NCBI GenBank assembly: GCA_964016885.1
Contig: OZ024740.1
Location: 52,638,001 to 52,702,000 of the forward strand
From: Eledone cirrhosa
Taxonomy: Eukaryota
Direction: 5' to 3'
DNA: 64,000 nucleotides
A program made the translations under genes and the position numbers. The notes under the pieces were generated by a model. That model had not been told where the DNA came from and did not search any database. It saw nothing but the letters and a program-made list of their open reading frames with translations. Of this stretch, positions 4,959-43,568 are shown piece after piece. Position 1 is the stretch's first letter. Each line of letters begins with the position of its first letter.

Positions 4959-5245
4959 GTACCCATATTGTGTCTGATATATGGGCAGAATATCTTCAGA
5001 TTGACCAAATCGAACAAGGTATATATACTCAGGAATATTTAGATTATGATTATCCAGATGATACAGAAATACACACCAGAAATATAGAGAGAATGTGGCT
5101 GACAATAAAAAAGGATTTTCAACGAAAGCGAAAAATATTCTTATCTCCATCTTTATTAACAGAAATTATGTGGAGATATCATTTTAAGGATAATGATAAA
5201 TTTTCTGCTCTAATTTATTGTATCAAACACTTATATAAAGTTTAA
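4959..5245 (+). CDS. Merlin-derived gene copy A, last exon (first exon presumably upstream of the window)
   Basis: Acceptor TTTTTTTTGTAG|GTACCCATATTGTGTCTGAT. The open frame GTHIVSDIWAEY...HTRNIERMW...KHLYKV* is homologous to copy D exon 2. AATAAA overlaps the stop. Confidence 0.8.
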
Positions 5246-5289
5246 TAAAGTTAATATTGTATTTTTATTTGTAGTTAAATGTACACAAT

Positions 5290-6500
5290 AGGGTCATTTC
5301 AGTTAAATTCAACAGAGGTCTTCAGATTTTCACCATTTATTGATACCGACAAAAAAAGTAATTTCTTAAAATATTTTCTCCATAGAACTTATCAATCAGA
5401 TTTTATGCCTATTTAAAGACTTGGGCAATTTCCAAAATTTTGAAAATATTGAATTTATTTGATTTTTAGATGCCTAGTAACTTTTATTGGAACTTGATTT
5501 CCTTAATCTCCACCATTTGAAGTTCCTCAGACACTAAAATACAATTGCTTTAAGCTGGCCATTTTAAATAAAATGTTAACTGAAAATTTGAAAAATCTGG
5601 GTCTTAAGGGCTATTTTTAAAAAACTCTAAGTTTAGGTGACTGCTACTGAATAACAACTTTTGAGCATGCCATCTTTTCTAATCATGCAATTATGATTGG
5701 CAAATGAGGCTTCATACTTTTGTTACACATTCTGGAATGGTGGGGTGGAGCAGAAAAATTTCTTCAAGGTATCTATTGATGGGTGATCGTGTCTATCAAG
5801 GTAGTTTTCCCAAAGTGCACTTCCCTTCCAAAGCTCAAGAAAATGAAATGCACTAGAAGTGAGTAATAAAAAAAACAATTCAATGAAAAACAAATGGCAC
5901 CAAAAGCTATTCATAAGCATCATATCTAATCAAACTTTGTACTTCTTTTATTTCATCATAAGAAAAACAATAGAATAGAATAGACCTGTGCATCCAGAGG
6001 TAAGTAGATCAACTTTCTTTATGATGTTCTCGATTGGAATCCAACAGATGTCATACTTACTCGGTCAGAAAAATTGGCTTTTAGGGCCTTTGGGATGAAG
6101 GAATTTCACAGTAATGTCAGTGTCCCACTAAAACATAATTTACCATTCCAAAGTACCAACCATCATTGTACTTACAAGCATAGGAAGACCCAGCTAAAAT
6201 ATCTTCAATTGACATAGTGCTAGCATTGTTTTGCAACAGCAAAGACGAGCAATGCCCAGAAACAAAGCTGGAAAAAAATGAGTATCAGCTGGTAGTTACC
6301 CCAGTGAAGAGTTGCTTGCCTGCAATGACACCTGTGCCATGCTGTATAAGCCTGTGCATTTCCCTTGGACAGCGTCAGTGGCAAGGAGATGGAAGATAGG
6401 CATACATAGATGAGTGCTGGTTTTCCACAAAAGGTCAGTCATAGACAATAGGGTCTTATACATATATCTTTTCCAACAAGTGTGAAACTAACATTTTATA
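5290..6500 (-). mobile_element. Degraded DNA-transposon-like remnant, superfamily unassigned
   Basis: A minus-strand fragment ACKYNDGWYFG...VKFLHPKGP...DICWIP resembles the C-terminus of invertebrate transposon-associated proteins. Many stops; ends not resolved. Confidence 0.3.
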
Positions 6501-6790
6501 TTATTGTACCTCTGTTTTCATCTTGTTTATCTTGAACTACATATATATATTATATCATCTTCATCACTTGTACGTTCACTTTTTCATGTTGGCATAGGTA
6601 GGATGGGATGTTTTGAGACAATGTTTTCCAGCTGGGTGCCCGTTCTGTTGCCAAACCTTTTAGTCAACCCTTATGACGCGGATTTGGTGTACCTATTCTA
6701 TGGTTCAACCGATTCAGTCATGGAACAATGAAAGTTATATGATTATGATTTGTGTGTGTGTGTATATATATATATTTATTGTATAGAAGG

Positions 6791-6841
6791 AGCTTCTACA
6801 GGACTAGAACTGTTTCATTCAGATGAAATCTTCAGGAAGCT
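6791..6841 (-). ncRNA. Type I hammerhead ribozyme motif
   Basis: Minus strand reads AGCTTC-CTGAAGA-tTTCatctGAAt-GAA-ACAGttctagtcCTGT-A-GAAGCT. This gives a 6-bp stem I, the core, a weak stem II, a 4-bp stem III and a GUA cleavage triplet. Confidence 0.7.
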
Positions 6842-11368: not shown

Positions 11369-12058
11369 ATGCCACGCGGAAGGCCAGCAAACCCTAAAAC
11401 AATATGCACAGACATCGTTGATAAAGAAAAAATTATTCGAGAATCTTGGACGTTTTGTGATCTCTTTCAACGGACCTCCACAAATGATATAACAATTACA
11501 TGGTTGGCGAAATATAAGCTGATAAGCAATTCTGTTACGTGTGTCGTTTGTGGGAAACCATGTTCAGTAATTAGCTCCAATAACAGAGTTGATGGAAAAT
11601 TATGGAAGTGCCCAAAGCAAAACTATCAATCCGTGCGGGGTCCTTTTTTGAAAATAGTCACCTCTCCTTATCCACGTTTATATGGCTTATGTATATGTAG
11701 TCAAGAGAGTATTTACAGTCTGAGATAGCTCATGAGTTAAAAGTGAATAAGAATTCAACTACTGACCTGTTTCGTTACATTCGGGAATTGCTGGAACGGT
11801 TCTTGGAGGACCACCCGACAGAATTAGATGATTATTCTCCTGAGATTGGTGGGTTTGATTAACAGACAGGCGAACCAAAAATCGTTGAAATAGATGTAAA
11901 CAAATTTGTTAAATCTAAATGTAAGGATAAAAAACATGCAAAAGGATTTATGGTTTTTGGTGGGATTGAACGTGAAACTGAAAAATGTTTTCTGGTCCCT
12001 ATTGAGTATCAAAATAAAGACGCTTTCGAAGCTGCAATTATCCGGTGTATTTTACCAG
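11369..12058 (+). pseudogene. Merlin-derived gene copy B, first exon, disrupted
   Basis: Homologous to 41895-42591 but 690 nt instead of 697 (frameshift near 11620). In-frame TGG>TAG near 11698 and TTA>TAA near 11860. The donor CCAG|GTATGG is retained at 12059. Confidence 0.85.
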
Positions 12059-12126
12059 GTATGGTTAGTAAAATCGATTACTTTCATTCATGTCTCGCTG
12101 GTACCTTTCGTTATTTCTTTTATTAA

Positions 12127-12520
12127 CCCTACCTACCAGGGAGGGTGGCAACACAACGCTATTAGCTGTCAGTCCAGTGGAAAACAGGCGAAGGTGACGT
12201 CACTCGTCAACATCGTTTATTTCCGTATTACTACCACGCGTAAGTGGAGTTTTCACGCGTTTTTTTGAGAGAGAGGGGGAAGACTTAAAGGGGCCAAAAT
12301 AGAAAACAAGTCATGGTTATAAAGCATATCGATGTAAGTGGAGTTACTTAAATGAAAATATAGGTGGCCCTTAAAAGGGCCAAATTAGAAAACAAATTTA
12401 AGTTAATTAGAAAACAAGTCATGGTTATCAATGTAGAAAACAAGTCATTCATAAATTTAAGTTTTATAATCAAATTTTTTTCACCAACAAATATGACAGC
12501 TAATAGCGTTGTAGTGCCCG
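12127..12520. mobile_element. piggyBac-like MITE, with an inverted partial copy at 29264-29402
   Basis: TTAA|CCCT start. Internal inverted repeat ACAACGCTATTAGCTGTCA / TGACAGCTAATAGCGTTGT. The second copy ends AGGG|TTAA at 29402. Confidence 0.6.
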
Positions 12521-12553
12521 CAATTCTGTATCTTTACGTATATTGCGCATAGA

Positions 12554-12860
12554 TACGAGGGTTGACAAAGATACTCTCATGGAATGTGACCAAATGAGGT
12601 TTATTTTTCAACATAGTCTCCCTTGCGTTCCACACACTTCTTCCATCGGTGTTGCAGTACTGAGATCAATGTTTTCCTCGATAGTGGCAGTTGTAGGACG
12701 TCCAGACATTGGGTCATCTTCAAGAATCCCCTATCCTTTCCTAAATTCGGCTGCCCACTTTTGCACAAAGGAAAATTGTGGTACAATATTGTAAGGTCTG
12801 CTTATAGCATTATCCATCTTTCAAAAATGAAGGTCCACATTTCGTCGACTTCAATACATT
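12554..12860 (-). mobile_element. Mariner-like non-autonomous fragment
   Basis: TA-CGAGGG terminus. The minus strand encodes RWKKCVERKGDYVEK*, a mariner transposase C-terminus. Confidence 0.75.
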
Positions 12861-13509
12861 TTATTACATTTTATTGTATTGTAAACATTAACTTTTATGG
12901 AAATTTTATTACAAAATTTCAATTTAGTTCGATTTTTTGGAATTTATTTAACAAACATGGAAAAATAAGAAAAAGAATAAAATAAAAAATAATTTGATTG
13001 CCTTTAATAAAGAAGATAAATAGAGTGGAACTGATTTCCAGGTTATACTAATGAAACAAGGTTTTTTCCATTACTGATATTATCTGTCTGCCGCAAGTCC
13101 TGGTAGAAGATGCTACACGAACTAAAGTATTTTACTGAAGGACGCAACATGCTGCAGGATCGAAGAAACGAGCCCATGACTTTATAATGGTTAGTCCAGT
13201 ACCGTAACCCATAAGGCATGTGCCTTCACAGAGGAAAGGTAAATCATATTATAACAGATTAGATGGGTACTATGTTAAATATTACTATGTGTCATATTAT
13301 ACCAAAGAGGAAGTGTGCTGTATAATAAACATTGATATCAGGTTGATTCAATAACTACCCGGTCCCACATATGAACCCATGAACTTATGGTCGTCAGTCA
13401 AACACTTTAACCATTGTATGTATGTATACACGTATGGATGGATGTATGTATGTGTGTATACATGTATGCATGTATGTATACATGAATATATGTAAGTATG
13501 TATGCGTGT

Positions 13510-15992
13510 ATGAGAACAACTGGAAGGAGTTCAGGAGCTCGGTCTATGAGGTTTCAGCAGAGGTCCTTGGCTTTGTCACAAGAAAACAGGGACTGGTTTG
13601 ATGAGAATGACCAGGAGGTCAAGGCTCTGCTAGACAGAAAACAAAAGGCACTTGATGCAGTTCTTAAAGGTGGTAGCTCTGTTGGTGACAATTATGAGCG
13701 TTACAGACAGGTAAAGAAGGAAGTGCAGGTGAAACTCAGGGCTATGCAAAATACCTGGTGGAGCAACAAAGCAGATGAAGTTCAAGTGGCATCTGACGGC
13801 AACAATGTGAAACTGCCGCACTTTCTACTCACAGAGGTGTATGGCCCTTTCAGCTCTCCAGTGGCCCCTTTGAGATCGAAAGATGGCAAGCAATTACTGC
13901 GCGACCCAAAAGACACTCGACAGATAGAGAGATCACTTTGATGAGCTCTTAAACCAACCATCCCAGGTTGATGATGATTTCATTTCTTCCATTCCTATTG
14001 AACCAGTGAAGCATATGAGATGGTTAATGTATCTCCTCTTGCAGAGGGGACTTCTGTTGTGCATAAGCTGAACTGTGGAAAGTCTCCTGGTATGGATGGT
14101 CTGAGTGGAGCGGTTTTGAAGTGTGGTGGTGAAAACTTCACGCAGCGCCTGACTGACCTCATGAAAATTGTGTGGGAAGATGAGAATGTCCCACAAGAAG
14201 GATGCACTCATGGTGATTCTCCATAAAGGAAAGGACGGCAAGGACAAATGTGGCAATTATCATGTCATATCCCTTCTTTGAGTAGTTGGTAAAGTCGTGT
14301 CGAATATTGATGGATAGATTGATCCCAAGAGTTGCTCTGAATGTGTTGCCTGAGTCGCAGTGTGGGTTCAGAAACGAAAGAGGAACAGTGGATATGATTG
14401 TTTCTGCTCGGCAGCTGCAAGAAAAGTGTATCGACCTGTATGGACCTTTACCAGGTCTTTGTTGACTTGACAAAGGCCTTTGACACTGTCAATCGAACTG
14501 CGTTGTGGGAAAAAAATCCAAGCTAGGGTAGAAGATTCTGCATCTTTTCCATGGTGACATGAAGGCTTTGGTCAGTATTGGTGGTAGCATCTCTGAACTA
14601 ATATCAGTTGAAAATGGAGTGAAGCAGGGGGACATTCCGGCTCCAACTCTGTTTTGCTTATATTTTACGATAGTGTTTCTCATGGCATTCAAATATTGTT
14701 CTCATGGGGTTTACATCAGGTATCGCACTTCAGGAAGGTTGTTCAACATCAGGCGCTTTGGTACAAGCACAAAAGTATTAACATCTATAATCCGAGAGTT
14801 TTTGTATGCAGACGACTGCGATCTTTTTGCACACTCACAAAGTGACATGCAGCATATTATGAACTCTTTTTCTGCAGCTTGCAGCACTTTGGGCGTCACA
14901 ATAAGCTTGGAAAAAACTGTTGTGATGTATCAGCCAGTACCTGGAAACGAGTACACTGCACCAAGTGTGTACGTGTACGGAAAGAGGCTAAAAGTTGCTG
15001 ACAAGTTTGTTTACCTTGGTAGTACATTGAACACTTCATGCACACATGATAATGAAATATCCTTAAGAATCAAGAAAGCCAGTGATGCTTTTGGACGGTG
15101 GCCTCAACGTTTATGGTCCAGACGAGGTATCACTATCGAAACCAAGGTGTGAAAGTGTATCTGACTTGTGTCGTCTCCTCTTTACTTTATGTTTGTGAAA
15201 CGTGGGTCACATACAGAAAGCACCTCAAGGATCTGGACAGATTTCACCAACAATCGCTTCATAAGTTACTTGGGGTGTGGTGGAAAATGTTCACCAGTGA
15301 TTTGGAAGTTCTAGAACGGAGCAGGTGCGTGACTATAGAGAGCATAATCTTTCGGTGTCGGTTGAGGTGGTGCAGTCACGTGGTCCGGATGTCTGATGAT
15401 CGTATTCCAAAGCAACTTCTCTATGGAGAACTGTGTGAAGGAAGATGACCACCACATAAACCAAAAAGGCGGTACCGGGACTGTATCAGGGGCACCTTGG
15501 CTTGTGCTGGAATTTCATCTGACGAATGGCAGAAAATGGCTGACGAGCGTGTGAAGTGGAGACGTTTGATCAAGTCAGGTGGTGAACACTTTGAAACTCG
15601 TCGGAGAGAACACCTAACACTGAAAAGGAAGGTGAGGATTGAGACTGTTCTGAACTGCCTGCTGTTGAACATCATCTGGTTTGCCAGCACTGTGGTCAAG
15701 TCAGCCTGAGCAAAGCTGGTTTGGTTAGACATGAACAAAGTCATATCAGTAGACCTCATGTAGATTATGATCTGAAAAGGTGTAAGAAATGTACAAGCAT
15801 GCGAGGTCTTAAAAGATACATGTGAACATACAGCCAGAACAAAGCAATGGAAGGTTTCGGGGGAGCCTAAAGTTGCCATGTGTGTGCCAGAGGGTGCAAG
15901 TATTTGGCTGGTTTAAAGAGTCACATTTGTGCTTCACATTTTTGAACATTTTATCGGGCGATGGCAATACTTGAACACGAGTTTGCAGCCAT
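13510..15992 (+). mobile_element. 5'-truncated RTE-clade (BovB-like) LINE with C-terminal C2H2 zinc fingers
   Basis: DWFDENDQE, GKSPGMDG, PESQCGFR, FVDLTKAFDTV, GVKQGDIPAPTLF, LYADDC, FVYLGS and RIPKQLLYGEL across several frameshifts. Inserted in a (TATG)n tract. Confidence 0.92.
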
Positions 15993-16809
15993 CATGTAGT
16001 ATGTATGTATGTATGTATGTATGTCGGGTTACTCTTGAGTGCTATTGGTAACATGTAACCCAGTACAACCAGGTGCATGGTCGGGTCGTCGGCGACTAAA
16101 CCGGCAACCCCACCAAGTTTATTTATTGAGGAGGGTGATTTTGGACACCCTGCAGGACAAAAAACAAAACCTGACAAAGGGCGGAAGATCTCATAAGAGT
16201 CAACGGCCATCCAAAAGTGTGTAAATATGTATATACACATGTACATATGTATGTACATGTATATGTGTATATACATGGGTGCATGTGTATGTACATGCGC
16301 GGGGACATAGAAATAATCAGGCTGGACACCCGATCGCGCGGTTAAACCACTGGGAGTGAAGGACCCCTAGCCTTTGTCAGGGCATTCTTCTAGGAGAAGG
16401 CAACTCAGGAAACTGGGATAACTCCGATATAAAACCTGCGGCTCAGTAGTTAACGATGATGTTGATATTTTCTTCTTTTCGGGTTATAGCTACTGTCGCT
16501 CAGAGAGTGGGATTGGCTCAGTGCACAGTCTTTCCTCATTTAAAAAAATATCTTCATGCACAGGCATTGCATGATAGAATTAATTAATAATTATTAATAA
16601 TGGTATATCGTGCAATGGCCATACTCGATAACGAGGGGGCAGCCATCATGTATGCATGCAAGCGTGTATGTGTTTGAGTGTGTGTGTGTGCATATATATG
16701 TGTGTGTGCGTGTGTGTATATATATATATATATATGTGCATGTGGGTGTGTATATATATATCTCCATATACATATTTATTCAGCTGATATAGGTTGGATT
16801 GGTTGGAAT

Positions 16810-17520
16810 ATTCTGACGCGAATTCTTTCTGCTCTGTTAAATCGAAACAAATCTTGACTTTTTATTTGAGGTTTTCTATATAAGAGACCGGGAGACCATG
16901 TTGATACTATGAAGGCCATTTGTCCTAAGCCGCCTGGACTATTGCTCCCAGCTGTGGTCAGCCCATAGTATCAAACTAACCACGGAACTTGAGACAATCC
17001 AACGAAGCTACACCAAGAGGATTGCACGATGAAGGAGATGAGCTACTGGGAGAGGCTAAAAGAACTGAAACTCTACTCCTTGGAACGAAGACGGGAGAGA
17101 TACGCAGTGATATACATATGGAAAATCCTGGAGGGACTAGCGCCAAACTTTGGTATTGAGAGCAGGACCCCCCCCCCCCCGAACAGGACGTCACCGTGTG
17201 GTGACAAAAGTCCTGTCTTCCACATCTAGAACAAGAAGCAGATATTGCAATAGACTGGGGTTCAAAGGCCCTCAACTCTACAATAAACTGCCAAGGGATT
17301 TGAGAGATCTACATGGTGTGGCCGTGGATATTTTCAAGAAACTTCTCGACACCCTGTTTTCCAGGATCCCGGATGAGCCCACATCACGGTACAAAGGTAA
17401 CCTAAGAGCAGCAGCAACAAACTCCCTCGTACATCAATGGCCAGCCAACACAGGCTGGAGATAGAATGTGTAGCAACAAGGGCAGTGCCCAATCATGGTC
17501 TCAGCCGGATGGCTGGAACA
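16810..17520 (+). mobile_element. CR1/L2-type LINE 3' fragment, with an inverted partial copy at 20590-20860
   Basis: SRLDYCSQLWS, SYWERLKELKLYSLERRRERY.VIYIWKILEG, GPQLYNKLP and FKKLLD..F..IPDEP. Confidence 0.85.
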
Positions 17521-17556
17521 GCTAAAAGAGTATATATATATATTTAATATAGAAAT

Positions 17557-17608
17557 GGCTTCAACAGGACTAGAACTGTTTCATTCGGAGGAAATCATCA
17601 GAAAAGCC
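17557..17608 (-). ncRNA. Hammerhead ribozyme motif, same family as 6791-6841
   Basis: Minus strand reads GGCTTTT-CTGATGA-tTTCctccGAAt-GAA-ACAGttctagtcCTGT-T-GAAGCC, followed by (TA)n. Confidence 0.6.
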
Positions 17609-17817
17609 GACTGTCAATGTAATATGGGGAGGGTAGTAAATTGATGCTAAGTAGACAAACACATACACACTGACAGGCACTCCTGATTTTCAAGATTAAT
17701 TTATTCCAAACAAACAAAGGGTTTTCATTGAGTGGCAATATTAAAATGCTCTGCTAAAAGATATAAATATGTGTGTGTGTGTGTGTATATATATATATGT
17801 GTGTGTGTGTGTTTGTG

Positions 17818-17856
<39 letters not shown>

Positions 17857-17889
17857 TTGTGTATATATATATATATGTGTGTGTGTGTT

Positions 17890-17925
<36 letters not shown>

Positions 17926-17928
<3 letters not shown>

Positions 17929-18240
17929 AGGCAACACGGTAAAAACCTCCCAGCCCCACACTGTAAATGTGGTTGGTGTTAGGAAGGGCATCCAGCTGTA
18001 GAAAACCCGCCAGACAGTCCACGCTGTAATGTGGCCGTGTAGGCAACACGGTAAAAACCTCCCAGCCCCACACTGTAAATGTGGTTGGTGTTAGGAAGGG
18101 CATCCAACTGTAGAAAACCCGCCAGACAGTCCTATGCGAGCAAGACAACCACTCTTGCCTCAAGTGGGAAAACCCCCGTCCAAACCCATGCAAGCGTGGA
18201 ACACGGACGCTAAACCTGATGATGATGATGATGATGATGA
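17926..18240 (+). mobile_element. SINE with (GAT)n tail and internal duplication; family also at 10350-10570(-), 19930-20520(+), 44400-44530(-), 57280-57460(+)
   Basis: Shared core GTGGTTGGTGTTAGGAAGGGCATCCAGCTGTAGAAAACC and a (GAT)n tail like that of the PHD-RTE LINEs. Confidence 0.7.
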
Positions 18241-18259
18241 TATATATGTGTGTGTGTGT

Positions 18260-19097
18260 ACAAATTTCAATAATATTAAGACACCCTAATGGGGGTTAAA
18301 CGCCCTATAGTGAAAAGTTTGGCCAATAAATGGAACAAGATTTTACGAACTCCTCCTATGGTTTTGGAGATAGATCCCCATAACCATATATATTCTGAAA
18401 CTACATTGCCCAGGGTACTTGTATAAGTATATTTCATTTTAATCAAAGGGTTCATCGGGGGCACAAAACCGCTGCTGAAACTTTACCTTCGATTTATATG
18501 CAATTTAAACCATAGGGTAAATGACAAGATATGATGCCTATTCACATCATTTCAGCAAATTTCAATAAAATTAGAATACCCTAATGGGGGTTAAACCCCC
18601 TATTAGGGTTCACCAGGGGGCACAAAATCCCCGCTGAAAATTTTTTCGGTTCGATTTTTATGCAATTTAAACCATAGATAAATGAAGAGATATGATGCCT
18701 ATTCACAAAATTTCAATACTATAAGACACCTTAATGGTGGTTAAACCCCCCTATTAGTGTTCCCGGGGGTACAAACCCCCGCTGAAAACTTTTCCCTTTC
18801 GATTTATATGAAACTTAAACCATAGGTAAATGACAAGATATGATGCCTATTCACAAAAGTTTTCAATTGATATTTAAAAAAAAATTATTTACAAGAAACA
18901 AAATAAGAATAAGATTTAATAATGCAATTTTGATTTGATATATTACAAAAAATGATGTTTTCCAATTTTTCATGCATTATATTTTACATTGAGTAATATT
19001 GAGTTTTTCTCCATAAATTATATCACTGATTTAAAATCAATCATTTTCTTACAAAAGAAATGTGTGAAACGCAGCAAGGCGCTGGTAATTCGGCTAG
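18260..19097 (+). mobile_element. Non-autonomous Helitron-like element with three internal tandem units
   Basis: Three copies of AAATTTCAATA..TAAGACACCCTAATGGGGGTTAAACCCCCTAT...GATATGATGCCTATTCAC. The 3' end is GCAGCAAGGCGCTGGTAATTCGG-CTAG|T. Confidence 0.6.
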
Positions 19098-19145
19098 TAT
19101 ATATATATATATATGTGAGTGTGTGTATATATATGTGTGTGTGTG

Positions 19146-19850
19146 TGTGCTCATTATGTAGGGGAGGTGTAGGTAGAAACTCCATCCTCTGCCCTATATG
19201 CAAACTATGGGTACACAAGAGATGTAGTGGGATCTCAGGAAGTTTAGTTAAGAATGTAGGCTTTACATGTAGCAGTTGCACCATGACAGTAAGCAGCAAA
19301 CAATCACTGAAAACAAGTGACATCAAAGTCTGGGAGGACTTGGTAAAAACAATACCGAATTAGCAGCGGAGGGGGGTGTTCTGAAAGAACGGGGTGGAAG
19401 AAGTTGAGGGAGCTACTGCCACAGCTGGATACAAAAGGCTTTTCCCTCAGAATAAAAGGTAGACTGTATGATGTGTGCATATGAACGGCAATGTTGCATG
19501 GTAGTGAGAGCTGGGCGCCGTGTGTAAAAGACTTGCATAGATTAGAAAGGAATGAAGCTTGTATGCTCCGATGGATGTGTAATAGTAATATACGCGAACA
19601 GCAAAGCATAAACAAACTGAAAGAGAAACTAGGCGTAAGAGGAATCAATTGTTGTGTGCAGGAGAGGAGATTATGTTGGTATGGACCTACGATTCGTATG
19701 AAGGATGACAGCTACATAAAGTCCCAGAAAGACTTGAGATGAAGTGATAAAAGCCGACCTTGCCCAATTGCACCTCTGAAAGGCAATGACACAGGACCAA
19801 GATCTCTGGCGTTATGAGGTAATACAGAAACCCCAACTTCCCACGGGCCC
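19146..19850 (+). mobile_element. PHD-type RTE-like LINE 3' fragment
   Basis: CSLCRGGVGRNSILCPICKLWVHKRCSG...CSSC, MLHGSESWA and RLERNEACMLRWMC. Confidence 0.85.
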
Positions 19851-20145
19851 AGGCCAAGGCTGAAACATACATACAGTATGCACCACTCCATCCCACCCAC
19901 CAATATATATCTTTCATGAGAACAGGCCGAAACACTGTAAAGTGGTCATGATGGTGACACGGTAAAAAACACCCAGTCCACACTGTAAAGTAGTCGTGGA
20001 GGAATCACAACAAAAAACACCCAGTACTCATTGTAAATGAGCTTGGCATGAGGAAGGGCATCCAGCTGTAGAAACCAAGCCAAAATCAGTTCTTTATGAG
20101 CAAGGCATGGTCACCTGACCTAAGATAGCCAACAATAGAAGGCAC

Positions 20146-27612: not shown

Positions 27613-27667
27613 GTGAGGTTTTTTTTACAAAATGAAAAATAACCGAGGTGTCCTACACGAGTGAAAG

Positions 27668-28009: not shown

Positions 28010-28016
<7 letters not shown>
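27668..28016. repeat. ~350-bp near-perfect palindrome between (TA)n tracts, containing three variant hammerhead motifs
   Basis: Centre GGTTTTTCTCACATGTGAGAAAAACC at 27867/27868. Arms TATAAAGAAAAAGATATCAAATCGAAAATGCAACTGG and CCAGTTGCATTTTCGATTTGATATCTTTTTCTTTATA. Confidence 0.9.
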
Positions 28017-28054
<38 letters not shown>

Positions 28055-28421: not shown

Positions 28422-29098
28422 ATTGAGCCCTCTGCCACTCATGTCGGATTTTGTTTATCGTAAATTCGTGAGCTGATTTTTCGATACTCGATTATTCTAT
28501 TATATTTAGCTCTAGACATAGCTATTGACCAGTTAATTTTATTGTTCATTTTTGTCGATTCTATTGAATGATGAATAGCTCCTGTTTATTTTAACATGTC
28601 TATCGAGCACTCTTATTCGATATGTGTATTACACATTCTCGATTATCTTTCGCGAATATAGAGGTTATCTCCCTTGCTAGACTCCATGTGCGTTTAGCTA
28701 CAGTTAATTTCTTCATTCGTCGGACAATGGCCCGTTGATAAAGTTATTCCGGTCCCTCTTCTCCCTAGAAGTCTTATATATTTTTATGTGGGCTGATAGG
28801 GGGCGGATTAAGGAATAGCAGAAACCCAAGAAGCTAGATTTACCACCTTTCTACTGGGTCCGGGTAAGCTTTTTACATTCATATGATTTATTGATTTATT
28901 GATATTTTATCTGAGTGACCCGAATCTTCTTGGTCGTAATTTTTCGGCTGCACGGGTGATTTTAGGCATAATCTTTGTGTGTTGGTATCTTAACGATAGT
29001 TATAACTCTGAATTATTGAGCCCACTGCCACTCATGTCGGATTTTGTTTATCGTAAATTCGTGAGCTGATTTTTCGATACTCGATTATTCTATTATAT
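28422..29098. mobile_element. Small non-coding element with ~83-bp direct terminal repeats in a (TA)n tract
   Basis: ATTGAGCCC(T/A)CTGCCACTCATGTCGG...GATTATTCTATTATAT at 28422 and 29015. Confidence 0.65.
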
Positions 29099-30399
29099 AT
29101 ATATATATACAAACACTGTGTCCCAAAAAATGTATTCACACTTCAACAGCAAAGTAATCAAAGTGTGTATATATTTTGGAGGGGACACCGTGTATATATA
29201 TATATATATATGTGTGTGTGTATGTGTAACTAGTAAAACTGTAAAAACGCAGCGGTATATTCTAATTTGGCCCTTTTAAGGACCACCTATATTTTCATTT
29301 AAGTAACTCCACTTACGCGTGGTAGTAATACGGAAATAAACGATGTTTTGCTTTCATCGGCTGCTTCGACTGACAGCTAATAGCGTTGTAGTGCCGGGAG
29401 GGTTAATAAAATCTATAGTTTTCCATTTCTACCTTGTTAAGTCATTAAACAGTCTTATTTTAACTTTAGCTTCACAAGTAAATTTTCTGGGTGTCATTGA
29501 TAATAGGTATTGAATAAAGAAAAAATATCTTGTCCAATTCACTAAATTAATTTTGCATGTTTTATTTGCATTATACACACGGACGAACACTAACATGTAT
29601 ATACACAATGGATCCAGTGAATTGGACGAAATATTTTCATGTTCTTCATTCAAGATCTGTTGTCCAGACTACCCAATTTTCCTCATTGCCAATTACTTCT
29701 TTATATTAACAGGTTATTATTTGGTCAGAAATAACTATTATACTTATTTTGGTAAATTTATAGAACACCCACTTTTATTTAAGTGGGAAAAAAATTCCTG
29801 TTTTTTGGGGTTTTTTCGCGTGCTATCAACTAATCTAACCCCCGGGATGCTCCTCGCAATCTACTTTTTCCCCCTAGGAAAACGGAGGGGGTGGGAGTTT
29901 TCTTTACGAGTGTTATAAACGAATATGATCTCCAAATCAGTCGGAAACGACTAGATTTGTAGAAACAAGTCACAAAGACATGCTAAAAGAGACCCTGAAA
30001 GTATGTAATATAGACCCTCACCAGTGGACCATCCATGCTGCTGGTCGCAATGTTAGGCGCGGCACCATCCGGCTAGCTACAAGTGCATTTGGGGCAAACC
30101 GATGTCATAATTTAATCTAAAATATTCAATTTCACTGTTAACTGTCTGTATGAAGAGGAATGTAAAAGTTGTTTTTGAAATTATTGATAATGTTTCGAAA
30201 TAATGATATTTTGTAAGATAATTTAAAAAAATAAATAACACTTTTTATAAGCATCAGAGTGTCTAAAGATTTTTATTAATGCTTTCAGTTATTGAACTGT
30301 AGCAATGCTGGAGCAACAGCTTTAACAAATCCTTTCAGTCTGCTCCTTATTTTATTGATCTGTATTACATGATAATTTTATTGTTTATAATTCTTACAG

Positions 30400-31540
30400 A
30401 ATGAAAATATAAACACATATAATACAATTAATACTTCATAGTTGCACGAACAACATTACAAAGCGTTTGCAATTTACAGTAGAATAACATAACAAATATG
30501 TTTTAAATATATACATAAAATGCCTCGGTAGCACTACAAAGGATGATATCATGAAAGATATATTCCTTCAATGCTACAATATTAAAGAAAATGTAAAAGA
30601 AGGGGTGAACAACGGAGCCAACACCAGAGCAAAAGACAGCAACGTCGCGAGTACTGGGCAACCTCTCTAATGATTTTTGAGGCAAGCCAGCACACTCGCA
30701 GCGTTGCCTCGGGTGATGGCGAGGCTGATGCGCTGAAACAGCCAAGCACCCTCGCTAGTCACCTCTATTAGGCGAGCCGCCAGTGAGGAAAGGAACCTCG
30801 CAGTCAGCGGCCCGACTCCCCCAAACGTCTCGAAAGCCACAGGCTGAAAAATGTAGCTGGCCAACAGAGCAGAGTATTTGAGGGTCTTACTCCGCTCGGC
30901 TGCAGAAGCTGTGGCTCTCGTCCTAACCGCAGCATCCAGGATGTGGGAAAGAGCAAAGGAGTCACTAACAGTGACATCCCAGACAAGGCACCTGCCTCTC
31001 GACCAGGGGCACAGGTATTTTGCCGTCACTTCTGGACAACCCAGTTGGTTCCAAGACTGAGGGGATATTCGCCCGGGCCAAAGCTCTCTTCAGAATGATG
31101 CGCGAAGCGGCCGGCATTCAGGCGACAAGAAAGACCGTGGAGGCCTGTAGAGTCGAGGAGTTTGCCGCATCGGCACCTCAAACCCATGCAGACGTCGGCT
31201 CCCACTCTGAGGGCGATGGAGACACGAAGTTCGTCCAGGCTGAGTAGGCCACCAACGTTGGCCACGGGTAGGGCATCGACCCAGTCGCCTGAGTATTTGG
31301 CGCTGGCAGATAGTAAGCGGCACCTTGCAAACTGATCTGACTGGACGAAGAGGGAGTCGAAGGAGGCCTTCGAACTTATGCTGTCCCAAGCTCTCTGACT
31401 TCGACTGTCCTCCACCTTCTCAGGAAGAGACAAGCCCAGCTCACTCCATTGCTGGAGAGCTTCACCCAACTCCCTGTTGAAACTAGTCCATGTTGGAGAG
31501 GAGAGGATGCTGCTCACCAGGGTGGAGGAAAGGAAGCAGG
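30400..31540 (-). mobile_element. CRE-clade-like non-LTR retrotransposon 3' portion (zinc knuckle and restriction-like endonuclease); fragments also at 40790-41010 and 46880-47410
   Basis: SGDWVDALP, ELRVSIALRVG, CRCG....GLHGLSC, CLVWDVTVSD, AAERSKTLKY, FQPVAFETFG and FQRISLAITRGNAASVL. Confidence 0.85.
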
Positions 31541-32069
31541 GGAGAGATGTTTACCAACTATGATTTTGGCTCAGTAAACTGATACTGGCATAGATAAACA
31601 CACATATGTGAAATGTTTACTTTTTTTTTTATAACTATACATGTTTAGCTTTGCAATGAAAAGTAGACAAAGTCGTCACGACCAGGCTTTGTATTTTGTG
31701 AGGGCAGGAAAGTGGGATTGGTCTAACTATAATTTTCTGTCTTTTAAGACCTTTGCCCAGTACTCCTTACGACGTTGCTCTCCTTTTCTCGGTTGTTCAC
31801 CCCTTCCTTTACATTTTCTTTAATATTGTAACATTAAAAGAATATATCTTTCTGAATGAATCGCGAGCTATTTATAATGTTATCGAAGCATTTGTAATGT
31901 TATTTATGTATATATTTAAAACATATTTGTTATGTTATTCTACTGTAAATTTATTTATATGCTTTGTTTATATTTTCATTCTGAAAGAATTGCAAACGAT
32001 TTGTAATATTAAAATTTGCAACGTTATTCTACTGTAAATTTATACAACGATAAGAGTTATGTTAAGTTT

Positions 32070-34008
32070 TATAGCGGGATACTGGGTTGTATGAATGTAA
32101 CAAGGAGACATGGTTTGTGTGTATAATATTTAATCAACAATTTAACAGTGTAGTTGACATGTCAATAAACGAAAGAATGAAGCAAAGTTAGTAGTTACCG
32201 TTTTGATTGCCAGGCAAACGCGACTGGCAGAAGACGCCTGGCGAAGGCCAGGCGCCGGAAGGGCAAATGAGAGAGTGAGAATTTAAAGTTGTTAATTTTA
32301 TAGGGTTCTGACCGGAAATTACAGAAAGGGTTCTACTTCCCGTCTAGATGTTAATCTATTGGGGTTGTGAGTCACAACAAGGGAGGCAACTGCCACATAA
32401 CCTCCCGCCAGAATTTTAGAATATAAAAATCGAATGAAATATGTAGCAAGTTGGCGAGAATGTTGTAACAGACATGAAAATTACGACAAAAGAATGTTTG
32501 CAAAAATCAATGATAGATGTCAAGGTAGCCAACCGCTCTTGGCCAGAGAACGACTGGACATCTATCTATCCATCACCCAATGATACAATGTAATAAAGTA
32601 AGAAAAGAGCTCAAAGTTCAAATGTACAAAATATAGTTCACAGGTGTGCAATCACATGACAGCAGGAAAGAAGTGTGTTCCAGAGAATGAATGCAGGTGG
32701 TTTCTGTTCTATGGTATTTCGTGCAATTTCCAACCTCCGAATGGATTTTCTCACAGGAAGAGTGCTGCAAAAATAAATTCTCTGGCTTGTTCTGCTGGTT
32801 TTGGTTGTTGGTGAAGCTGTGTTGCTGTTGATGTTGTCTCGCGGAGTGAGCGTATTCGGTGTTTAAATTCACAGTAAAAAAAAATTTTTTCGGAAAAAAT
32901 GAGTTGCGCAAAGTGTTAGAAATAACAGCCGAAGTTGATGGTCGATGTTGAGAATGCGTTGACCTGGAATGGTCAAGAGGCCAGCGACCAAAGAAATAAG
33001 CATTCTGAATAAATGCGCAGTTTTCAACGGCAAATTTAGGTGGTAAATTTTTAAACCGGCAAATAGGAGAATATAGCTTAAGGCTGAAGAATCCTTGGCG
33101 AGAAACGTTATCTCTGGCATGCGGCTATCTCTGTGAGTCTAGAATTTGTGCTGCCTACACGTGCCAATACACGGTTAAGTTAGGTTGAAAAAATAATATT
33201 TCTAACGCGCGAGAAAATGATAGTGCAAGTGTGAAAGTGACAATGATGAAAAAGAAAGGCTTCACTCAGCATTATTATTGGTGTGAACTTTTGAAAAAAA
33301 CTTGAACGATGAAGAAAACGATGAAAAAAAAAAAAGGCAATGGTTCATCGAAAATAAATGTTCCTGTTGAAATGTTTTTAAAAAAATATCAAATTTCTTT
33401 TTTTTTTGTTGTTTTGAAAATGTTCGTTGTTAGAAACGAGAAACATATATATATATCGTGAAATGCGACAGTTAGTTGATGCGTGAGAGAAAAAGTCTGT
33501 CTGAACGCGAATTTCACATGTGCGTGTGTCCGTTTCTTTGACTGAGTATTTTCATAGTTTGTCAATAAATTTGCTGTGTATTCGTAATGTTACTCACACA
33601 ACACCAGATTCCGCTATTTTTTTCTTTTTTCGGGGTGACCACTTATAACAATGAACGGCTGCGTGTTCGTATCACGTCAGGGTCACCAATATAGCGAAGA
33701 ACTAGCGGTGTATTAATGTAACAAGGAGACATGGTTTGTGTGTATAATATTTAATCAACAATTTAACAGTATAGTTGACATGTCAATGAATAAACGAAAG
33801 AATGAAGCAAAGTTAGTAGTTACCGTTTTGATTGCCAGGCAAACGCGGCTGGCAGAAGACGCCTGGCGAAGGCCAGGCGCCGGAAGGGCAAATGAGAGAG
33901 TGAGAATTTAAAGTTGTTAGTTTTATAGGGTTCTGACCGGAAATTACAGAAAGGGTTCTACTTCCCGTCTAGATGTTGTGAGTCACAACAAGGGAGGCAA
34001 CTGCCACA
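32070..34008 (-). mobile_element. Internally deleted LTR retrotransposon (Gypsy-like); LTRs 32070-32397 and 33690-34008
   Basis: Direct repeats of ~320 bp reading TGTGGCAG...CGCTATA on the minus strand. 4-bp TSD GTTT on both sides. PBS TGGTGACCCTGACGTGAT (tRNA-Trp) 1 nt from the 5' LTR. Purine tract GGCGGGAGG before the 3' LTR. The 1.3-kb interior has no long ORF. Confidence 0.88.
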
Positions 34009-34669
34009 GTTTCAATAATATTTCTAGTCTTAATAAAATGAATATTAAAACTTTAATTATATTATAATTATCTACATTATGATGTTTATATTATTAAGAA
34101 TATCCATCTCATGTCAACTGAGAGATTAATAGCTTATAACTATTTGTAGTGTATACAACTTTGGAAACTAACTAATGATTACGTGTGAAGAAATGCATCA
34201 GATCTGTATATGCTTGATACACCTGGGAATGTCACCCGTTCTCTGTTACCAGCTATCACTCTATCAACCATTTTACAAAGCATTTTATCTAGATTTTACA
34301 ACTGTAATTAGGAGGCTTATGAAGTGCAGACAAATACAATGAATAAAAGCCAGAATAAGAGATGTAAAATTTGAATGCAATTCGTGTGAAATATCCTTTT
34401 TAATATATTGAATCATATGACAGCATAGACATTTACACTCACTTCATTCACCCATACCTTTCTGCAACAAAGTTTACTGCTAACATGATTTAATATATCC
34501 CCCATTCTTAATGTAGTCACTGTAACGTAGTAGTAAGCCAAGTTCAGGATCAGAATTTCATCCTCCATCAAAACAATTTTCATTCTTGCACTCTTAGAAG
34601 ATGCATAAAAGACACAACCTTTCATTTCTCCTCAATGTAGTGATTCATGACAGTTATTTTTTTTTGTAG

Positions 34670-34956
34670 GTACCCATATTGTGTCTGATATATGGGCAGA
34701 ATATCTTCAGATTGACCAAATCGAACAAGGTATATATACTCATGAATATATAGATTATGATGATATAGAAGAAACACAAATACACACCAGAAATATAAAC
34801 AGAATGTGGTTGAAACTAAAAGAGGATTTTCAGCAAAAGCGAAAAACATTCTTATCTCAGTCTTTATTAACAGAAATTATGTGGAGATCTCACTTTCAGA
34901 AAACTGATAAATTTGCTGCTCTAATGTATTGTATCAAACACTTATATAAAGTTTAA
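34670..34956 (+). CDS. Merlin-derived gene copy B, last exon (open frame)
   Basis: Acceptor TTTTTGTAG|GTACCC. Uninterrupted frame almost identical to copy D exon 2 (HTRNINRMW). AATAAA at the stop. Confidence 0.7.
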
Positions 34957-36036: not shown

Positions 36037-38549
36037 ATGTCACGCGTAAGACGACCAAGTAACAAAACGATATACACTGATATCGTTGTTGACGAAAAAG
36101 TTATTCAAGAGTCTTGGACATTCTATCATCTCTTTCAACAAACTTCCACAAATGATGAAACAATTACATGGTTAGCGAAATATAAGCTCATAATTCTGTT
36201 ATGTGTATCGTTTGTGGGAACCCATGCTCATTCATTCGGTACAGGCATGATTAAGATAGAAAACGATGGAGATGTCCAAAGCATAACTTTGTTCGATCTG
36301 TCTGTAAGGGATCAGTTTTTGTGAATAGTAACCTCTCGCTAACAACCTTCATATGGCTTATGTATATGTGGTCAAGAGAACATATACATTCTGAGATAGC
36401 CCATGAGATAAACATGAATAAGAGTTCAATTATTGTTTTGTTTCAACTGATTCAAGAAGAAATAAGCTGTGTAGCTGGTCCTGGCAAAATAGACATGCTT
36501 TTTAAGCTTATTTTACCGGTAAACCCTAATGGGATACAACTCTAGCCGGGGGTCCCGGAAGCTCATTTTAATGCTAAATAATAAATAGTGTTTTAGATCC
36601 CAGGTAGTGACAACTATCTTTAACCCAGGTCGTGACTTTTAGGCTAAAATTCTTAATTTCAAAAATATATGACCTTCTACTAAAATTCTTAATTTCAAAA
36701 AAAATTTGATACTGCTAAAATTCTTAAGCCATGGAACTCAGTAGATGTGTGTGTATGTAACTAAAGCATAACATATGTTACAAATGGACAAAACACAGGC
36801 AGAATTATAATAAGATGATGACTAAATGATTTTAACTTGGTAAGGCAAGCCGCCAATGATGACAAGATCTTTGTTGTTAGCCGCCCAACTACTCAAATGC
36901 CACAGGCTGGAAAAAATAAGTTGCTGATAATTCCCAGTATTTTAGAATTTTATTGGAAGAGGCTATGTAGCCAGTAAGAGTGTCAGACACCATGAGTTGC
37001 AGTCCAAGTTAAGACAATTTGAAATCTTTTTCCCCCATCAACTGTTAAAAAACAAGTTAAAATTATTTAGTCGTTCATGTTATGCTTTAGTTACATACAC
37101 GCACACATCTACACGTAAATACATAAACAGATACAGACAGCAGAAGGAAAGGGCTGGTGAAACACTATAGTGATGTGTGTTGCGTCCCTTTAGGGTTTAC
37201 TGGCTACATAGCCTATTCAAATTTTATTGTCTTCGGCTTTGGAAGCCGTGATCCTCACATTTTACAACAGCATCCAAGATTTCTGAAGGAGTAAAAGAGT
37301 CATTGAACTAAGTGCTTTTTGTCGTGGCACCAAACGACCACTTTACAGTGTGAGTTGGCGTGGGGAAGGTGCATCTAGGGTTGAGGGCACTTATCAGGTG
37401 AGGGTGGGGTGTTAGGGCGTGGGTGAAGGGTGAGGAAGGTAGGGGAAAGTAGAGCATACTTAATGTATGTTTCAACCTGTGCATATGGGAAGGCGTGTCT
37501 TCTGTATTACTGCATAATGCCAGAAATCTCAATCCTATGCCATTGTCTTTGAGAGGTGCAATTGTGCAAGGTCAGCCTTTATCACCTCGTCCCTATATAT
37601 AATATGTGTGTGAGGGAGATTAAGAAACATTAAAATGAGGATCTATTGAACTTAGTTTTAATTTTATTATAAATATTAATTGATTATGATCTGTTTGATT
37701 TGAATGTGAGATGAACGTGTGGTCAGACAATAAAGACTTCAGCTAATGTGTACTGGAGGGGCAATTGTGCTGTGAAAGACATTCTTATGAAAATGAATGA
37801 CATTTGCTTGGTAAAAAAATACTATTTGCTGATAGTGGAAGGCACCATTGGCAAAAGAAATCTGAGAAAGAAATAATATCTAAATGGAGGTAAGCCTAAC
37901 AACATTAGTTGGGTTGTATGAGTGAAAAATAAAAAAATAAAATTTGTTCATGAAAGATGCTCTAGCACACAACTATACTTGAGGGGCTTATGAAGTGAAG
38001 ATAAACATTGACTGAAAGCCAGAATGAGAGAGATGGCTAAAGTTGAATCCAGTTGCTATTTTAGAATATTGAATCATTTAACATTTACACTCACATTTAG
38101 TCATACCTTTCTGCAACAAAGACTACTGCTAACATGGTTTAATATTTTCTCCCATTCTTTATGTAGTCACTATAATGTAGTGTTAAGCCAAGTTCAAGAT
38201 CAGGATTTCATTCTCCATAGAAACAATTTTCATTCTTGTGCTCTTGGAAAAAACATGTCACATTTATGACAGTTATTTTATTTTATTATATTTTTGTAGG
38301 TACCCATATTGTGTCTGACATATGGGCTGAATATCTTCAGACTGACCAAATCGAACAAGGCATGTATACTCAGGAATATATAGATTATGATTATCCAGAA
38401 ATATAGATAAAATGAGGTTGAGACTAAAACACTCTATTAGAAGAAAATATGGGAAACTCTTCTTTCAATCTTTTTTTAACAGAATTTGTGGAGATCGCAA
38501 TTTAAAAATAATGATAATTTATTGTATCAAACATTTGTATAAAGTTTAA
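36037..38549 (+). pseudogene. Merlin-derived gene copy C: frameshifted, truncated exon 1 (36037-~36460) and internally deleted exon 2 (38300-38549)
   Basis: Exon 1 reads MSRVRRPSNKTIYTDIV...WLAKYKL, frameshifts, then FIWLMYMWSREHIHSEIAHE. Exon 2 begins TTTTTGTAG|GTACCCATATTGTGTCTGAC and has deletions after DYDYP. Confidence 0.85.
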
Positions 38550-39950: not shown

Positions 39951-41039
39951 GATGGTAGTTTTAGTTTATTCCCATATAAGTTAGTCAACTTAAATGTTTT
40001 ATCTACATCATCAACAATGGGATGCATAAATATCACATATGCCAAAATTGTTTTCATAATTTCAAAATGGGTTTTCGATTTTTTTACATTATTGTTTATC
40101 CCAGCACTGGTTAAAAAAATAACTACCTAGTTTTACAGTTGATAGACATTTCAATTTTTTTTCTCCATTATTAATTGCCCGGCATAAGTTTATATAAGTT
40201 GTCTTAAGGGTTTTTCATTTTGGCACAAGACCAGTAATTTTTGGGAAAAAGAAAAATCAGTTGACTGGTACTTTATTTTATCAACCTCAAAATGGTGAAA
40301 AGAAAAGTTGAACACAGAAAATAAAGAACCAGAACAAATGTTGCTAAACATTTGTCCACTGTTCTGCCAATCTTCCACCCTATTTGTCTTAATAATGAGA
40401 GAAATCGATTTATGTGTTTCTAATATAATACATTTTAAACTATGGCGGTGTTTCAGCTGTGCCCCACGATTTTATGGAGCAACTCGGTAGTACAGTGTTC
40501 GAAGGAGGCCTTAAGGTCTTGACGGCAACCATTGCGAAGAAGCGACCAGACAAGCCTCGGTATTTACTGGAGGTGGAGGTGTTTTTGCATTTATATCTGG
40601 AGGATTCTTCAGCTGTGCCGTAGACATGACACCCTCCATAGTGGTGATCTATAAGATAAATGATTATCCAGTACACTGTTAAGTGGTTCGAGCAAGGTAA
40701 AAAAGTATGGGGATAATGAGTTTGTGTAAAATTCTTCTTTTTAAGAGTATAGAGTTGGTTTTGATGGTCTTTTCCCAATTTTTTCAGAGTTGTAACAGTT
40801 TTCCACTTTGTCATGACATGGGAGCAAAAGAGTCACTGACTGTAGTGTTCCAGATGGGACATCTACCTCTTACCTGGGATAAGGCTGTCTGGATAATCCA
40901 AACGGCCCCAGAATTGAGGGGATATTTATCCGAGTTAGGGCCCGTTTAATGATCAGGTTTATTTCGGTGTGGAAGGCGAAGCGACCAGCATTCAGGCAGC
41001 AGGACAAACCATAGAGACAATATTTGTTTTGCAAATAAT

Positions 41040-41513
41040 GGATCTCGGCGATATCCAATTTTAGCGGCCTAAATGCCGCTTACTTGCTGTAGTTGCTGCT
41101 TACTTCAATGTATGAGGCTATTCCAACAAATTTACATTCCCAGAACGAGGAAACTGTGGGGATATGTCGCCGGCCAACAAAGGTTTTGTACAGGTAAGAG
41201 AAGAAGGGAGCACCCCCCTCTCTCTGTGCTCCCTGGCAGAAAAGTCGCACACTTTCTACGGGTGTGTGTGTGACCCCAAAAGGCTAATAAATCGCAAAAA
41301 AACAAACAAACAAAAACGTGGCAAATAAAGAAATCTATGCCCCAGTGGCAAATAAATCGCAAAAAAAAAAACAATAAATAAATCTATATTTCTTTTAACG
41401 GCTAAAAAAAGGGAATGTAAATTTGTTGGAATAGCGTCATACATTGAAGTAAGCAGCAACTACAGCAAGTAAGCGGCATTTAGGCCGCTGAAATTGGATA
41501 TCGCCTGGATCTC
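41040..41513. mobile_element. MITE with ~100-bp TIRs and 4-bp TAAT flanks (Sola-like)
   Basis: GGCGATATCCAATTTTAGCGGCCTAAATGCCGCTTACTTG...ACATTCCC is reverse-complemented at 41410-41513. TAAT on both sides. The superfamily assignment is tentative. Confidence 0.8.
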
Positions 41514-41894
41514 TAATATTCAAAATGTAAACATTTAAAAAAAAGCATTTCTTCTTAACAAGGCATATTAAAATATCTAATTCAACATTTTTGTGATATC
41601 TTTTCACATTTCGTATGTATTAACGTGTTTTATACAATAAACATATCACGAGTTGTAATTTGAAATCAATTTCGAAAGCGATTTAAGGTTACTAGGGGGT
41701 AACGTGAAATTGAGGGTAACTTGAAATGTTTACACCGCAACAAACAACACAAGCCTTGACGACTGTCAACAATGAAAATCTAATACACTGAAAAAAAGTG
41801 TTAGTTTCGTATAAATAATGTTATTTTCTTTAACTTATACGAAACTAACATTTTCTTCAGAATATGAATTATCGCTGTGTAAATTCTCGCAGAA

Positions 41895-43568
41895 ATGCCT
41901 CGCGGAAGACAACCATGTCCCAAATATCTATGCTCAGATATTGTAGATGACGAAATAATTCTTAAAGAATGTTGGACATTCTGTGATCTTTTTCAACACA
42001 CTTCCAACAATGATGTAGCAATTACATGGTTGGCGAAATATAAGCTTATAAGTAATTCTGTTACGTGTCCCGCTTGTGGGAACCCATGTTCAGTGATTAG
42101 TTCCAGTAACAGAGTTGATGGAAAACGATGGAAATGTTCAAAGCATAGCTACTGTCGATCAATTCGCAAGGGTTCCTTTTTTGAGAATAGTCACCTCTCG
42201 GTGACAACATTTATATGGCTGATGTATATGTGGTCAAGAGAGTATTTACAGTCTGAGATAGCTCATGAGTTAAAAGTGAATAAGAATTCAACTACTGATC
42301 TGTTTCGTCTCATTCGGGAATTGCTGGAACGTTTCATGGAAGACCACCCGACAGAATTAGCTAACAACCCTCCTGAAATTGGTGGGTTTGATTTACAGAC
42401 AGGCGAACCAAAAGTCGTTGAAATAGATGTAAACAAATTTGTTAAATCTAAATGTAAGGATAAAAAACATGCAAAAGGATTTATGGTTTTTGGTGGGATT
42501 GAACGTGGAACTGAAAAATGTTTTCTGGTCCCTATTGAGCATCAAAATAAAGACGCCTTTGAAGCGGCAATTATCCGATGGATTTTACCAGGTATGTTTA
42601 ATAAAATCTGATTATCTTTCATTTGTACCGTGTTCAGGTAATTGGTGTATTTTTCAATTCAGCTTCACATGTAAATTTAATTTATTGTCAGTACGCAATT
42701 GCCTCTGTATTAACACTTTGTTAATATTTGTAGTCTTATATATTCGTTAGAAATCACTATTACACTATTATTTGAATATTTCATCTCAATATATATATAT
42801 ATGTCTAAGTTTTTTATTTTTTATTTTCGTGCAACAAAGCTGGAGGCAACTTAATTTATACGCCATAATCATGAAACCTATTCTCAGTAATCCATCAAAG
42901 AAACATATATCTATAATTTCTTTGTTTACACATTTTCGCGAGGAATCTGACTGATAATGAAGACTGAAAAAAAAAAGAAAGAAAAAAAAACCGTTCATTT
43001 TAAATAATTTTATTTTACAGTATTCAATGCAAAACCTAAAACTCACAACGAAATATATTATACAAAAAAAAAATATATAAATAAATAAATAAAATAAAAT
43101 AAAAATAATTTAAATGTTGTTTCTGATAATGTGAGATAGAATATGTCCCCTAGGAAACTTTGCTTCAATCAATTTCAAACCATCTTAGATCTTTGAAACA
43201 GCTCATAGAAGTAATTGATGATGAAGATAAACCTACAGTTAAAAACTAATTTCTTCTCAATGACATTGATTTTTCTTGTAGGTACCCATATTGTGTCTGA
43301 TATATGGGCTGAATATCTTCAGATTGACCAAATCGAACAAGGTATATATACTCATGAATATATAGATTATGATGATCCAGATGATACAGAAATACACACC
43401 AGAAATATAAACAGAATGTGGTTGAAACTAAAAGATGATTTTCAGCAAAAGCGAAAAACATTCTTATCTCAGTCTTTATTAACAGAAATTATGTGGAGAT
43501 CTCACTTTCAGAAAACTGATAAATTTGCTGCTCTAATTTATTGTATCAAACACTTATATAAAGTTTAA
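41895..43568 (+). CDS. Merlin/IS1595-family transposase-derived protein, copy D, intact; exons 41895-42591 and 43282-43568, 327 aa
   Basis: Exon 1 encodes a Zn ribbon (CPACG...WKCSKHSYC), SIRKGSFFENSHL, an HTH-like SEIAHELKVNKNS, VVEIDV, VFGGIERGT.KCFLVP and IIRWILPG. The donor CCAG|GTATGT at 42592 and acceptor TTTTCTTGTAG at 43281 join in phase 1 to give ILPGTHIVSDIWAEY...HTRNINRMW, the DDE_Tnp_IS1595 signature. 697+287=984 nt with no internal stop. AATAAA overlaps the stop codon. Confidence 0.9.

Follow-up and report, generated by a model that had tools for sequence, protein, structure and literature searches.

A Merlin-derived, intron-bearing gene family in the octopus Eledone cirrhosa, with a candidate role in DNA binding

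We analyzed a stretch of 64,000 nucleotides (nt) of Eledone cirrhosa contig OZ024740.1 (referred to as the window; its position 1 is 52,638,001), which carries four copies, A to D, of a gene related to the transposases of Merlin DNA transposons. With very high confidence, we regard the copies as members of a host gene family of octopuses that was domesticated from a Merlin transposase. The family resembles Merlin elements (IS1595/ISXO2-like, PF12762) in its domain, its length of about 327 amino acids (aa), its cysteine cluster, its integrase-type core and its first two aspartates, which are mostly kept. It differs from them in having no terminal inverted repeats (TIRs), and hence no ends at which target-site duplications (TSDs) could be located, in its intron, in its clustered low copy number, in its orthologues across species and in the loss of signature residues. 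Our overall reading, to which we assign a probability of roughly 0.6, is a Merlin-derived host family whose intact members are dead for transposition and act as sequence-specific DNA-binding regulators.

The cluster runs in the order exon-2 remnant, g0, A, B, C and D. Copies A and D are intact, as is g0, a fifth copy upstream of the window; B and C are pseudogenes. Exon 1 of copy A (G000:C1:52635622-52636318), also intact, sits some 2 kb upstream of the window, and g0 lies still further upstream. The features of the window, with helix-turn-helix abbreviated to HTH, are as follows.

4959..5245, plus strand: copy A exon 2, intact, with E at the third catalytic position; the spliced product has 327 aa
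11310..11323, plus strand: conserved upstream element of copy B, 14 base pairs (bp)
11369..12058, plus strand: copy B exon 1, pseudogene with a 7-nt deletion and in-frame TAG and TAA stops
12059..34669, plus strand: copy B intron, 22.6 kb, GT-AG, packed with repeats and retrotransposon fragments
34670..34956, plus strand: copy B exon 2, an open reading frame with 94% aa identity to exon 2 of D
36037..36458, plus strand: copy C exon 1 remnant, with a 4-nt deletion and a stop, truncated, without donor and without upstream element
38300..38549, plus strand: copy C exon 2 remnant, frameshifted
41047..41505, no strand assigned: non-autonomous Merlin miniature inverted-repeat transposable element (MITE) with GG...CC TIRs and an 8-bp TSD, a passenger from a different Merlin family
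41800..41849, plus strand: inverted pair of 14-bp elements upstream of D (minus strand 41800-41813, plus strand 41836-41849)
41895..42591, plus strand: copy D exon 1, encoding N-terminal helices, the Cys cluster, an HTH-like region and the first part of the RNase H core
42592..43281, plus strand: copy D phase-1 GT-AG intron, 690 nt, spanned by a contig of sequencing run X4
43282..43572, plus strand: copy D exon 2 to the stop (43566-43568) and AATAAA (43567-43572), with N at the third catalytic position

Spliced from its ATG at 41895, copy D gives an open frame for a 327-aa protein. An earlier reading of this DNA from its letters (the sequence-only reading) had placed the start of exon 2 at 4959 in A, 34670 in B, 38300 in C and 43282 in D; all four are exact, with AG before each, and its exon 1 of D, 41895-42591 followed by GT, was borne out as well. 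The AATAAA overlapping the stop that it had noted was seen in A, B, C and D, and the homology does reach the intron ends and 3' flanks (4628-5276 against 34313-34987 at 82%; 34647-35295 against 43260-43889 at 83%). Its phase-1 GT-AG intron shared by four copies holds for A, B and D and fails for C, which has lost the splice donor, has not kept the intron whole and stops in exon 1 at about codon 142. Within the intron of B, we also observed a tandem array of ~870-bp units with ~90% identity (21939-26538) and an exact 262-bp tandem duplication (26639-27162), which may be an assembly artefact.

The absence of TIRs was reproduced: for none of A to D does an inverted repeat link the 1.5 kb on one side with the 1.5 kb on the other, and the same test was positive for seven of seven true Merlin elements. 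Extended to 11 family copies, it found bracketing inverted repeats in none, one SINE-like pair at a copy on C3 (SINE, short interspersed nuclear element) having been set aside. The 459-bp Merlin MITE about 390 bp upstream of D closes on itself and does not bracket D. A second resident Merlin family (L053, L055), with copies bearing inverted arms of about 1 kb, has a TIR matching that of the MITE.

We searched the 3.0-Gb genome with each exon; the copy counts are lower bounds. Nine intact family genes were found at five loci, together with several pseudogenes, at 56-84% identity to exon 1 of D, and all nine carry the intron at the same phase-1 position. A second class comprised more than 100 dispersed Merlin matches at 28-38% identity, the intronless elements with TIRs being about 32% identical. 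The seven dispersed elements that were examined are intronless and have TIRs starting with GG, six have a long open frame carrying DE-D-E, and one (L015) has a 9-bp TSD. The genome harbours several Merlin families that were active recently and have intact DDE, TIRs and TSDs. The suspicion that the family might consist of dispersed near-identical copies is answered: the family occupies five loci, with two pseudogene fragments besides, and the dispersed matches are elements. All five full-length Octopus relatives passed the cut-off of PF12762 (DDE_Tnp_IS1595), and the single exons of D, scanned separately, fell below it. On one small chromosome (G000:C25:19.2-23.8 Mb, L041-L046), multi-kb duplicated blocks contain Merlin copies, about 20 in number, that are nearly identical and internally deleted. 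The matches on C25 were considered as a second gene family and rejected, as 6 of about 25 were examined and are internally deleted elements in duplicated blocks.

Searches with exon 1 recovered proteins at 56-75% identity from Octopus bimaculoides, O. sinensis and O. vulgaris; O. bimaculoides accounts for eight genes, whose LOC numbers include two series of three in succession. A 35-row tree placed the 28 family proteins in one clade with 100/100 support on a stem of 0.83, apart from seven element sequences; the tool warned of long branches meeting there. Between O. bimaculoides and either O. vulgaris or O. sinensis, seven pairs of orthologues were 90.9-97.6% identical, comparable with the 89.2 and 96.7% of two BCAP31 pairs. 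Three family genes of the E. cirrhosa genome group with Octopus orthologues at 82-87% identity. A profile search of 1.84 billion representatives returned one family match at 666 bits, the next match scoring 262. No named family member outside Octopus was present among the search matches or the nine nearest outside matches, which does not in itself show absence in squid or Argonauta.

The evidence for synteny is partial. On C3, rpS10 lies about 40 kb from the family cluster, and in O. vulgaris one gene model joins a family exon to rpS10. For the cluster in the window the evidence is indirect: BCAP31 relatives are found on contigs equal in length to those of that Octopus cluster. A RefSeq isoform of O. 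sinensis consists of exon 1 of one paralogue (100%) and exon 2 of another (100%). It may reflect genuine splicing between copies or faulty mapping at junctions that are nearly identical. In protein P0021 (O. vulgaris CAI9735743), the gene model joins a family protein to C2H2 zinc fingers, as a read-through artefact or a real fusion isoform.

Four sequencing runs (X1-X4) were available for the transcript analysis; none is recorded as RNA, and the exon-only cover of X4 led us to read it as RNA. Cover in X1-X3 continues through the intron of D. In X4, the exons of D are covered, the intron bins are at zero depth, and cover ends at 43585, just past the AATAAA. A 171-nt contig of X4 (record 29) joins 42510-42589 to 43280-43370 with no mismatch, with 80 and 91 letters per side, and its exon 1 side is specific to D, differing from every other copy compared at at least six sites. 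The splicing anticipated across 42591/43282 was seen in this contig, from one run of unrecorded kind. Two other X4 contigs carry the alleles of B at the listed positions and differ from A by as many sites as B does; therefore, pseudogene B appears to be transcribed in this one sample. No contig specific to the exons of A was seen in X4, which is evidence neither for nor against its transcription.

We then compared 28 family sequences with 133 homologues (149 matches less 16 of at least 460 aa), using non-gap counts. Columns were assigned to the catalytic triad by what we take to be the Merlin DDE blocks, together with their place in the structural model described below. The E following the first D is present in none of the 28 family sequences as against 118/127 homologues, and the G of KYxRG in none as against 107/121. 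The VxH segment is deleted in all 28, whereas its H is present in 91/110 homologues. At the third acidic position, where 101/111 homologues have E, the family has E in 2, D in 21, N in 3, K in 1 and S in 1 (n=28); by gene, the triad is D-D-N in D and D-D-E in A and g0. The first D is missing from one conserved orthogroup and the second from another, and the genes of both have therefore been kept without a triad. The four Cys columns are kept in 28/28 family sequences. Three other Merlin-like proteins with eroded motifs (P0158, P0164 and P0166), including a multi-locus set in the scorpion Centruroides, are candidate independent domestications; one of them has an N-terminal Cys-rich extension, which we take to be ZAD-like.

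An AlphaFold model of the O. bimaculoides relative P0004, built on a 98-sequence alignment, reached a predicted local distance difference test score (pLDDT) of 93.4 and a predicted template modelling score (pTM) of 0.89. Over residues 169-320 it matches the cores of integrases and transposases (best Z 13.1, root-mean-square deviation 3.8, 132 aligned), a comparison that barely tests the N-terminal half. A model from a shallow alignment was discarded as unusable (pLDDT 44.5), and a sequence search of the PDB gave no match. Among paralogues, the RNase H core is the best conserved part, and the N-terminus, the Cys-cluster loop, the HTH-like region, the 179-196 loop and the basic helix are the most variable.

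Ratios of nonsynonymous to synonymous substitution (dN/dS, Nei-Gojobori) between paralogues were 0.18-0.47, with an upper confidence limit below 1 in 36 of 36 pairs and dS up to 1.1, which shows coding constraint and not domestication. The sequence-only reading had proposed dN/dS below 1 among orthologues as support for domestication. We reject it as proof, because active Merlin copies give similar values and the measure, applied here to paralogues, does not discriminate. Pooled by region, dN/dS exceeded 1 nowhere (maximum 0.90). Identical runs of 137 nt (A/D) and 144 nt (g0/A), set against a divergence of ~13% (approximate P 1e-6 and 1e-7), point to gene conversion; such tracts also inflate conservation near the intron.

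In 10 of 11 copies, namely the nine intact genes and B, a 14-bp motif (41836-41849 for D) is found 51-103 bp upstream of the ATG; C lacks it. This upstream element, often doubled in inverted orientation, is new here. Its flanks align poorly between copies, and 7 of the 10 genes bearing it hold extra, mostly inverted copies. Allowing at most three mismatches, we counted 18 sites in 11 x 250 bp, against a background of 0.038 per 250 bp; the motif having been defined on these very genes, a fair test is given by the second sites alone. Genome-wide, 9 of 13 exact 15-mers fall at family genes or pseudogenes, and a reversed control pattern has five matches. Paired-site searches of the genome returned 5 and 1 loci, of which 2 and 1 are family genes. 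This orientation-independent clustering suggests a putative protein-binding site. At G000:C2:318919023-318921009, an intact family gene stands head to head with an inverted pseudogene copy, both carrying the element.

Two other identities of the element were considered and set aside. A TIR relic finds no support, since the element's weight matrix scored eight Merlin TIRs no better than genomic background (p 0.06-0.84). As a splice signal, branch-point-like in the forward and donor-like in the reverse direction, it fails in that the second copy is upstream in some genes and downstream in others. For a possible target network, 39 non-family 13-mer sites were sampled from 125 counted: 20 lie inside one dispersed repeat whose frames read as a non-LTR (long terminal repeat) reverse transcriptase, and ETS/NF-Y content equals background. 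One non-family copy (G000:C6:24428816; L073, L088) stands just after what are presumably CRE-, CCAAT- and ETS-like motifs, and no gene was identified there.

The proposal that the family was captured from Merlin and then expanded by local duplication with birth-and-death is upheld by the single clade, the intron in 9/9 genes, the absence of TIRs, the orthologues in three Octopus species, the spliced contig of D and the pseudogenes beside intact copies. A single Merlin copy would have lost its ends in an octopod ancestor and would have gained the intron, absent from the elements examined, after capture. It would then have been retained for DNA binding, with clusters later built by duplication, translocation, conversion and pseudogenisation. 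The kept Cys cluster and the helical region lead us to infer that the family probably has a non-catalytic DNA-binding role: the zinc ribbon and HTH-like region would still bind DNA, the RNase H fold would serve as a scaffold, and paralogues would diverge most in the segments likely to contact DNA. The 14-bp element might be bound by a protein, possibly one of the family's own; autoregulation of this kind is a tentative suggestion that we rate as somewhat unlikely. More speculative again, and improbable, is a self-regulating octopod-specific circuit on this element with combinatorial proteins made by splicing the DNA-binding first exon of one copy to the last exon of a neighbour, on which the O. 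sinensis chimeric isoform and the exon 2 of B, still open despite its dead exon 1, have a bearing.

Several observations weigh against a DNA-binding host family as we read it. The first D is kept in 26/28 family sequences, the second in 25/28 and a third D in 21/28, making a D-D-D nuclease site possible for most paralogues. Pfam zinc-ribbon and HTH scores are under cut-off. Active Merlin elements have a similar dN/dS (0.12-0.39, 10 pairs), the RNA evidence is one run of unrecorded kind, and the 28 family sequences are not independent. Copies A and D have no one-to-one orthologue, their closest Octopus proteins being 74-77% identical. Outside the family, copies of the element are not enriched at promoters (0.077 vs 0.078), and no target network was found.

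The acidic residues at three positions in most members, and the complete D-D-E of A and g0, speak for the idea of domesticated nucleases that would retain a D-D-D/E site and, as PGBD5, THAP9 or ciliate excisases do, serve the host by cutting or processing DNA. The RNase H core, most conserved among paralogues, fits that idea, as do the complete triads of IS1595-domain genes reported in the accessible part of a study of Blepharisma (10.1101/2021.12.14.471607). However, all 28 sequences have lost the invariant neighbouring E, KYxRG and VxH, D has N at the third position, and the first or second D is absent from conserved orthogroups; we consider a nuclease function distinctly unlikely. The recently active Merlin families of this genome raise another possibility, that dead transposases occupy TIRs or poison active Merlin multimers and have duplicated to match several resident families. 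Tandem birth-and-death and conversion tracts fit such a conflict setting, and repression is a known role of domesticated transposases according to the accessible portion of PMC8101967. Yet the family is only ~34% identical to the resident transposases, its upstream element is unlike the eight tested TIRs, no region has a pooled dN/dS above 1, and the orthologues are conserved as well as housekeeping genes; we rate suppression of Merlin as unlikely. The two broken copies among four in the window, the further pseudogene fragments elsewhere and a dN/dS like that of elements would fit transposon copies that are selfish or decaying, have no function for the host and were spread by segmental duplication. 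This account is largely refuted, and left very improbable, by frames that stay open at synonymous distances as large as 1.1, by the orthologues in three further species, by the gain of an intron, by the lack of TIRs and by the conserved upstream element.

Transposase domestication in general is well known. For Merlin, it has been proposed in Stentor and Symbiodinium, as far as the accessible text of PMC8101967 goes; that text counts 191 Merlin sequences in O. bimaculoides and names no domesticated octopus family, and its supplements may list these proteins as elements. Genes with the IS1595 domain and without TIRs are likewise described in Blepharisma (10.1101/2021.12.14.471607, in the part available). 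These protist genes, according to the same partial sources, are comparable in their TIR-less conserved frames, some segmentally duplicated, some without DDE, with function unassigned, whereas the octopus family is animal and has intron gain, orthologues and a common upstream element. With Merlin domestication found proposed in protists only, a multi-gene, intron-bearing, conserved family in octopuses adds an animal case. A literature search, with subscription papers mostly outside its reach, found no published description of a Merlin-derived octopus family.

Transposon-derived transcription factors of octopuses, namely CENPB, THAP, HTH-Psq, ZBED and FHY3, have been surveyed in PMC10027918, whose main text contains no occurrence of Merlin or IS1595. 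They share with the family a lineage-specific domestication and expansion in octopus. As described in that main text, they come from other donor superfamilies, whereas the Merlin-derived proteins keep the whole transposase length with no fused host domain. The family thus offers a candidate set of octopus-specific regulators unmentioned in the main text of that survey. Recently active Merlin is also listed for O. vulgaris in the accessible part of PMC13282606. In E. cirrhosa, the active relatives in the same genome allow a direct comparison with the family, and the common 14-bp element is a concrete first target for a binding test.

Two further features of the window lie outside the family. 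On the minus strand, 8280-9464 holds a fragment like what we take to be a Penelope-like element with a GIY-YIG-type endonuclease. On the plus strand, 60774-61499 is an intronless BCAP31-like open reading frame, 65% identical to O. sinensis BCAP31 and possibly a retrogene; Octopus has two such genes.

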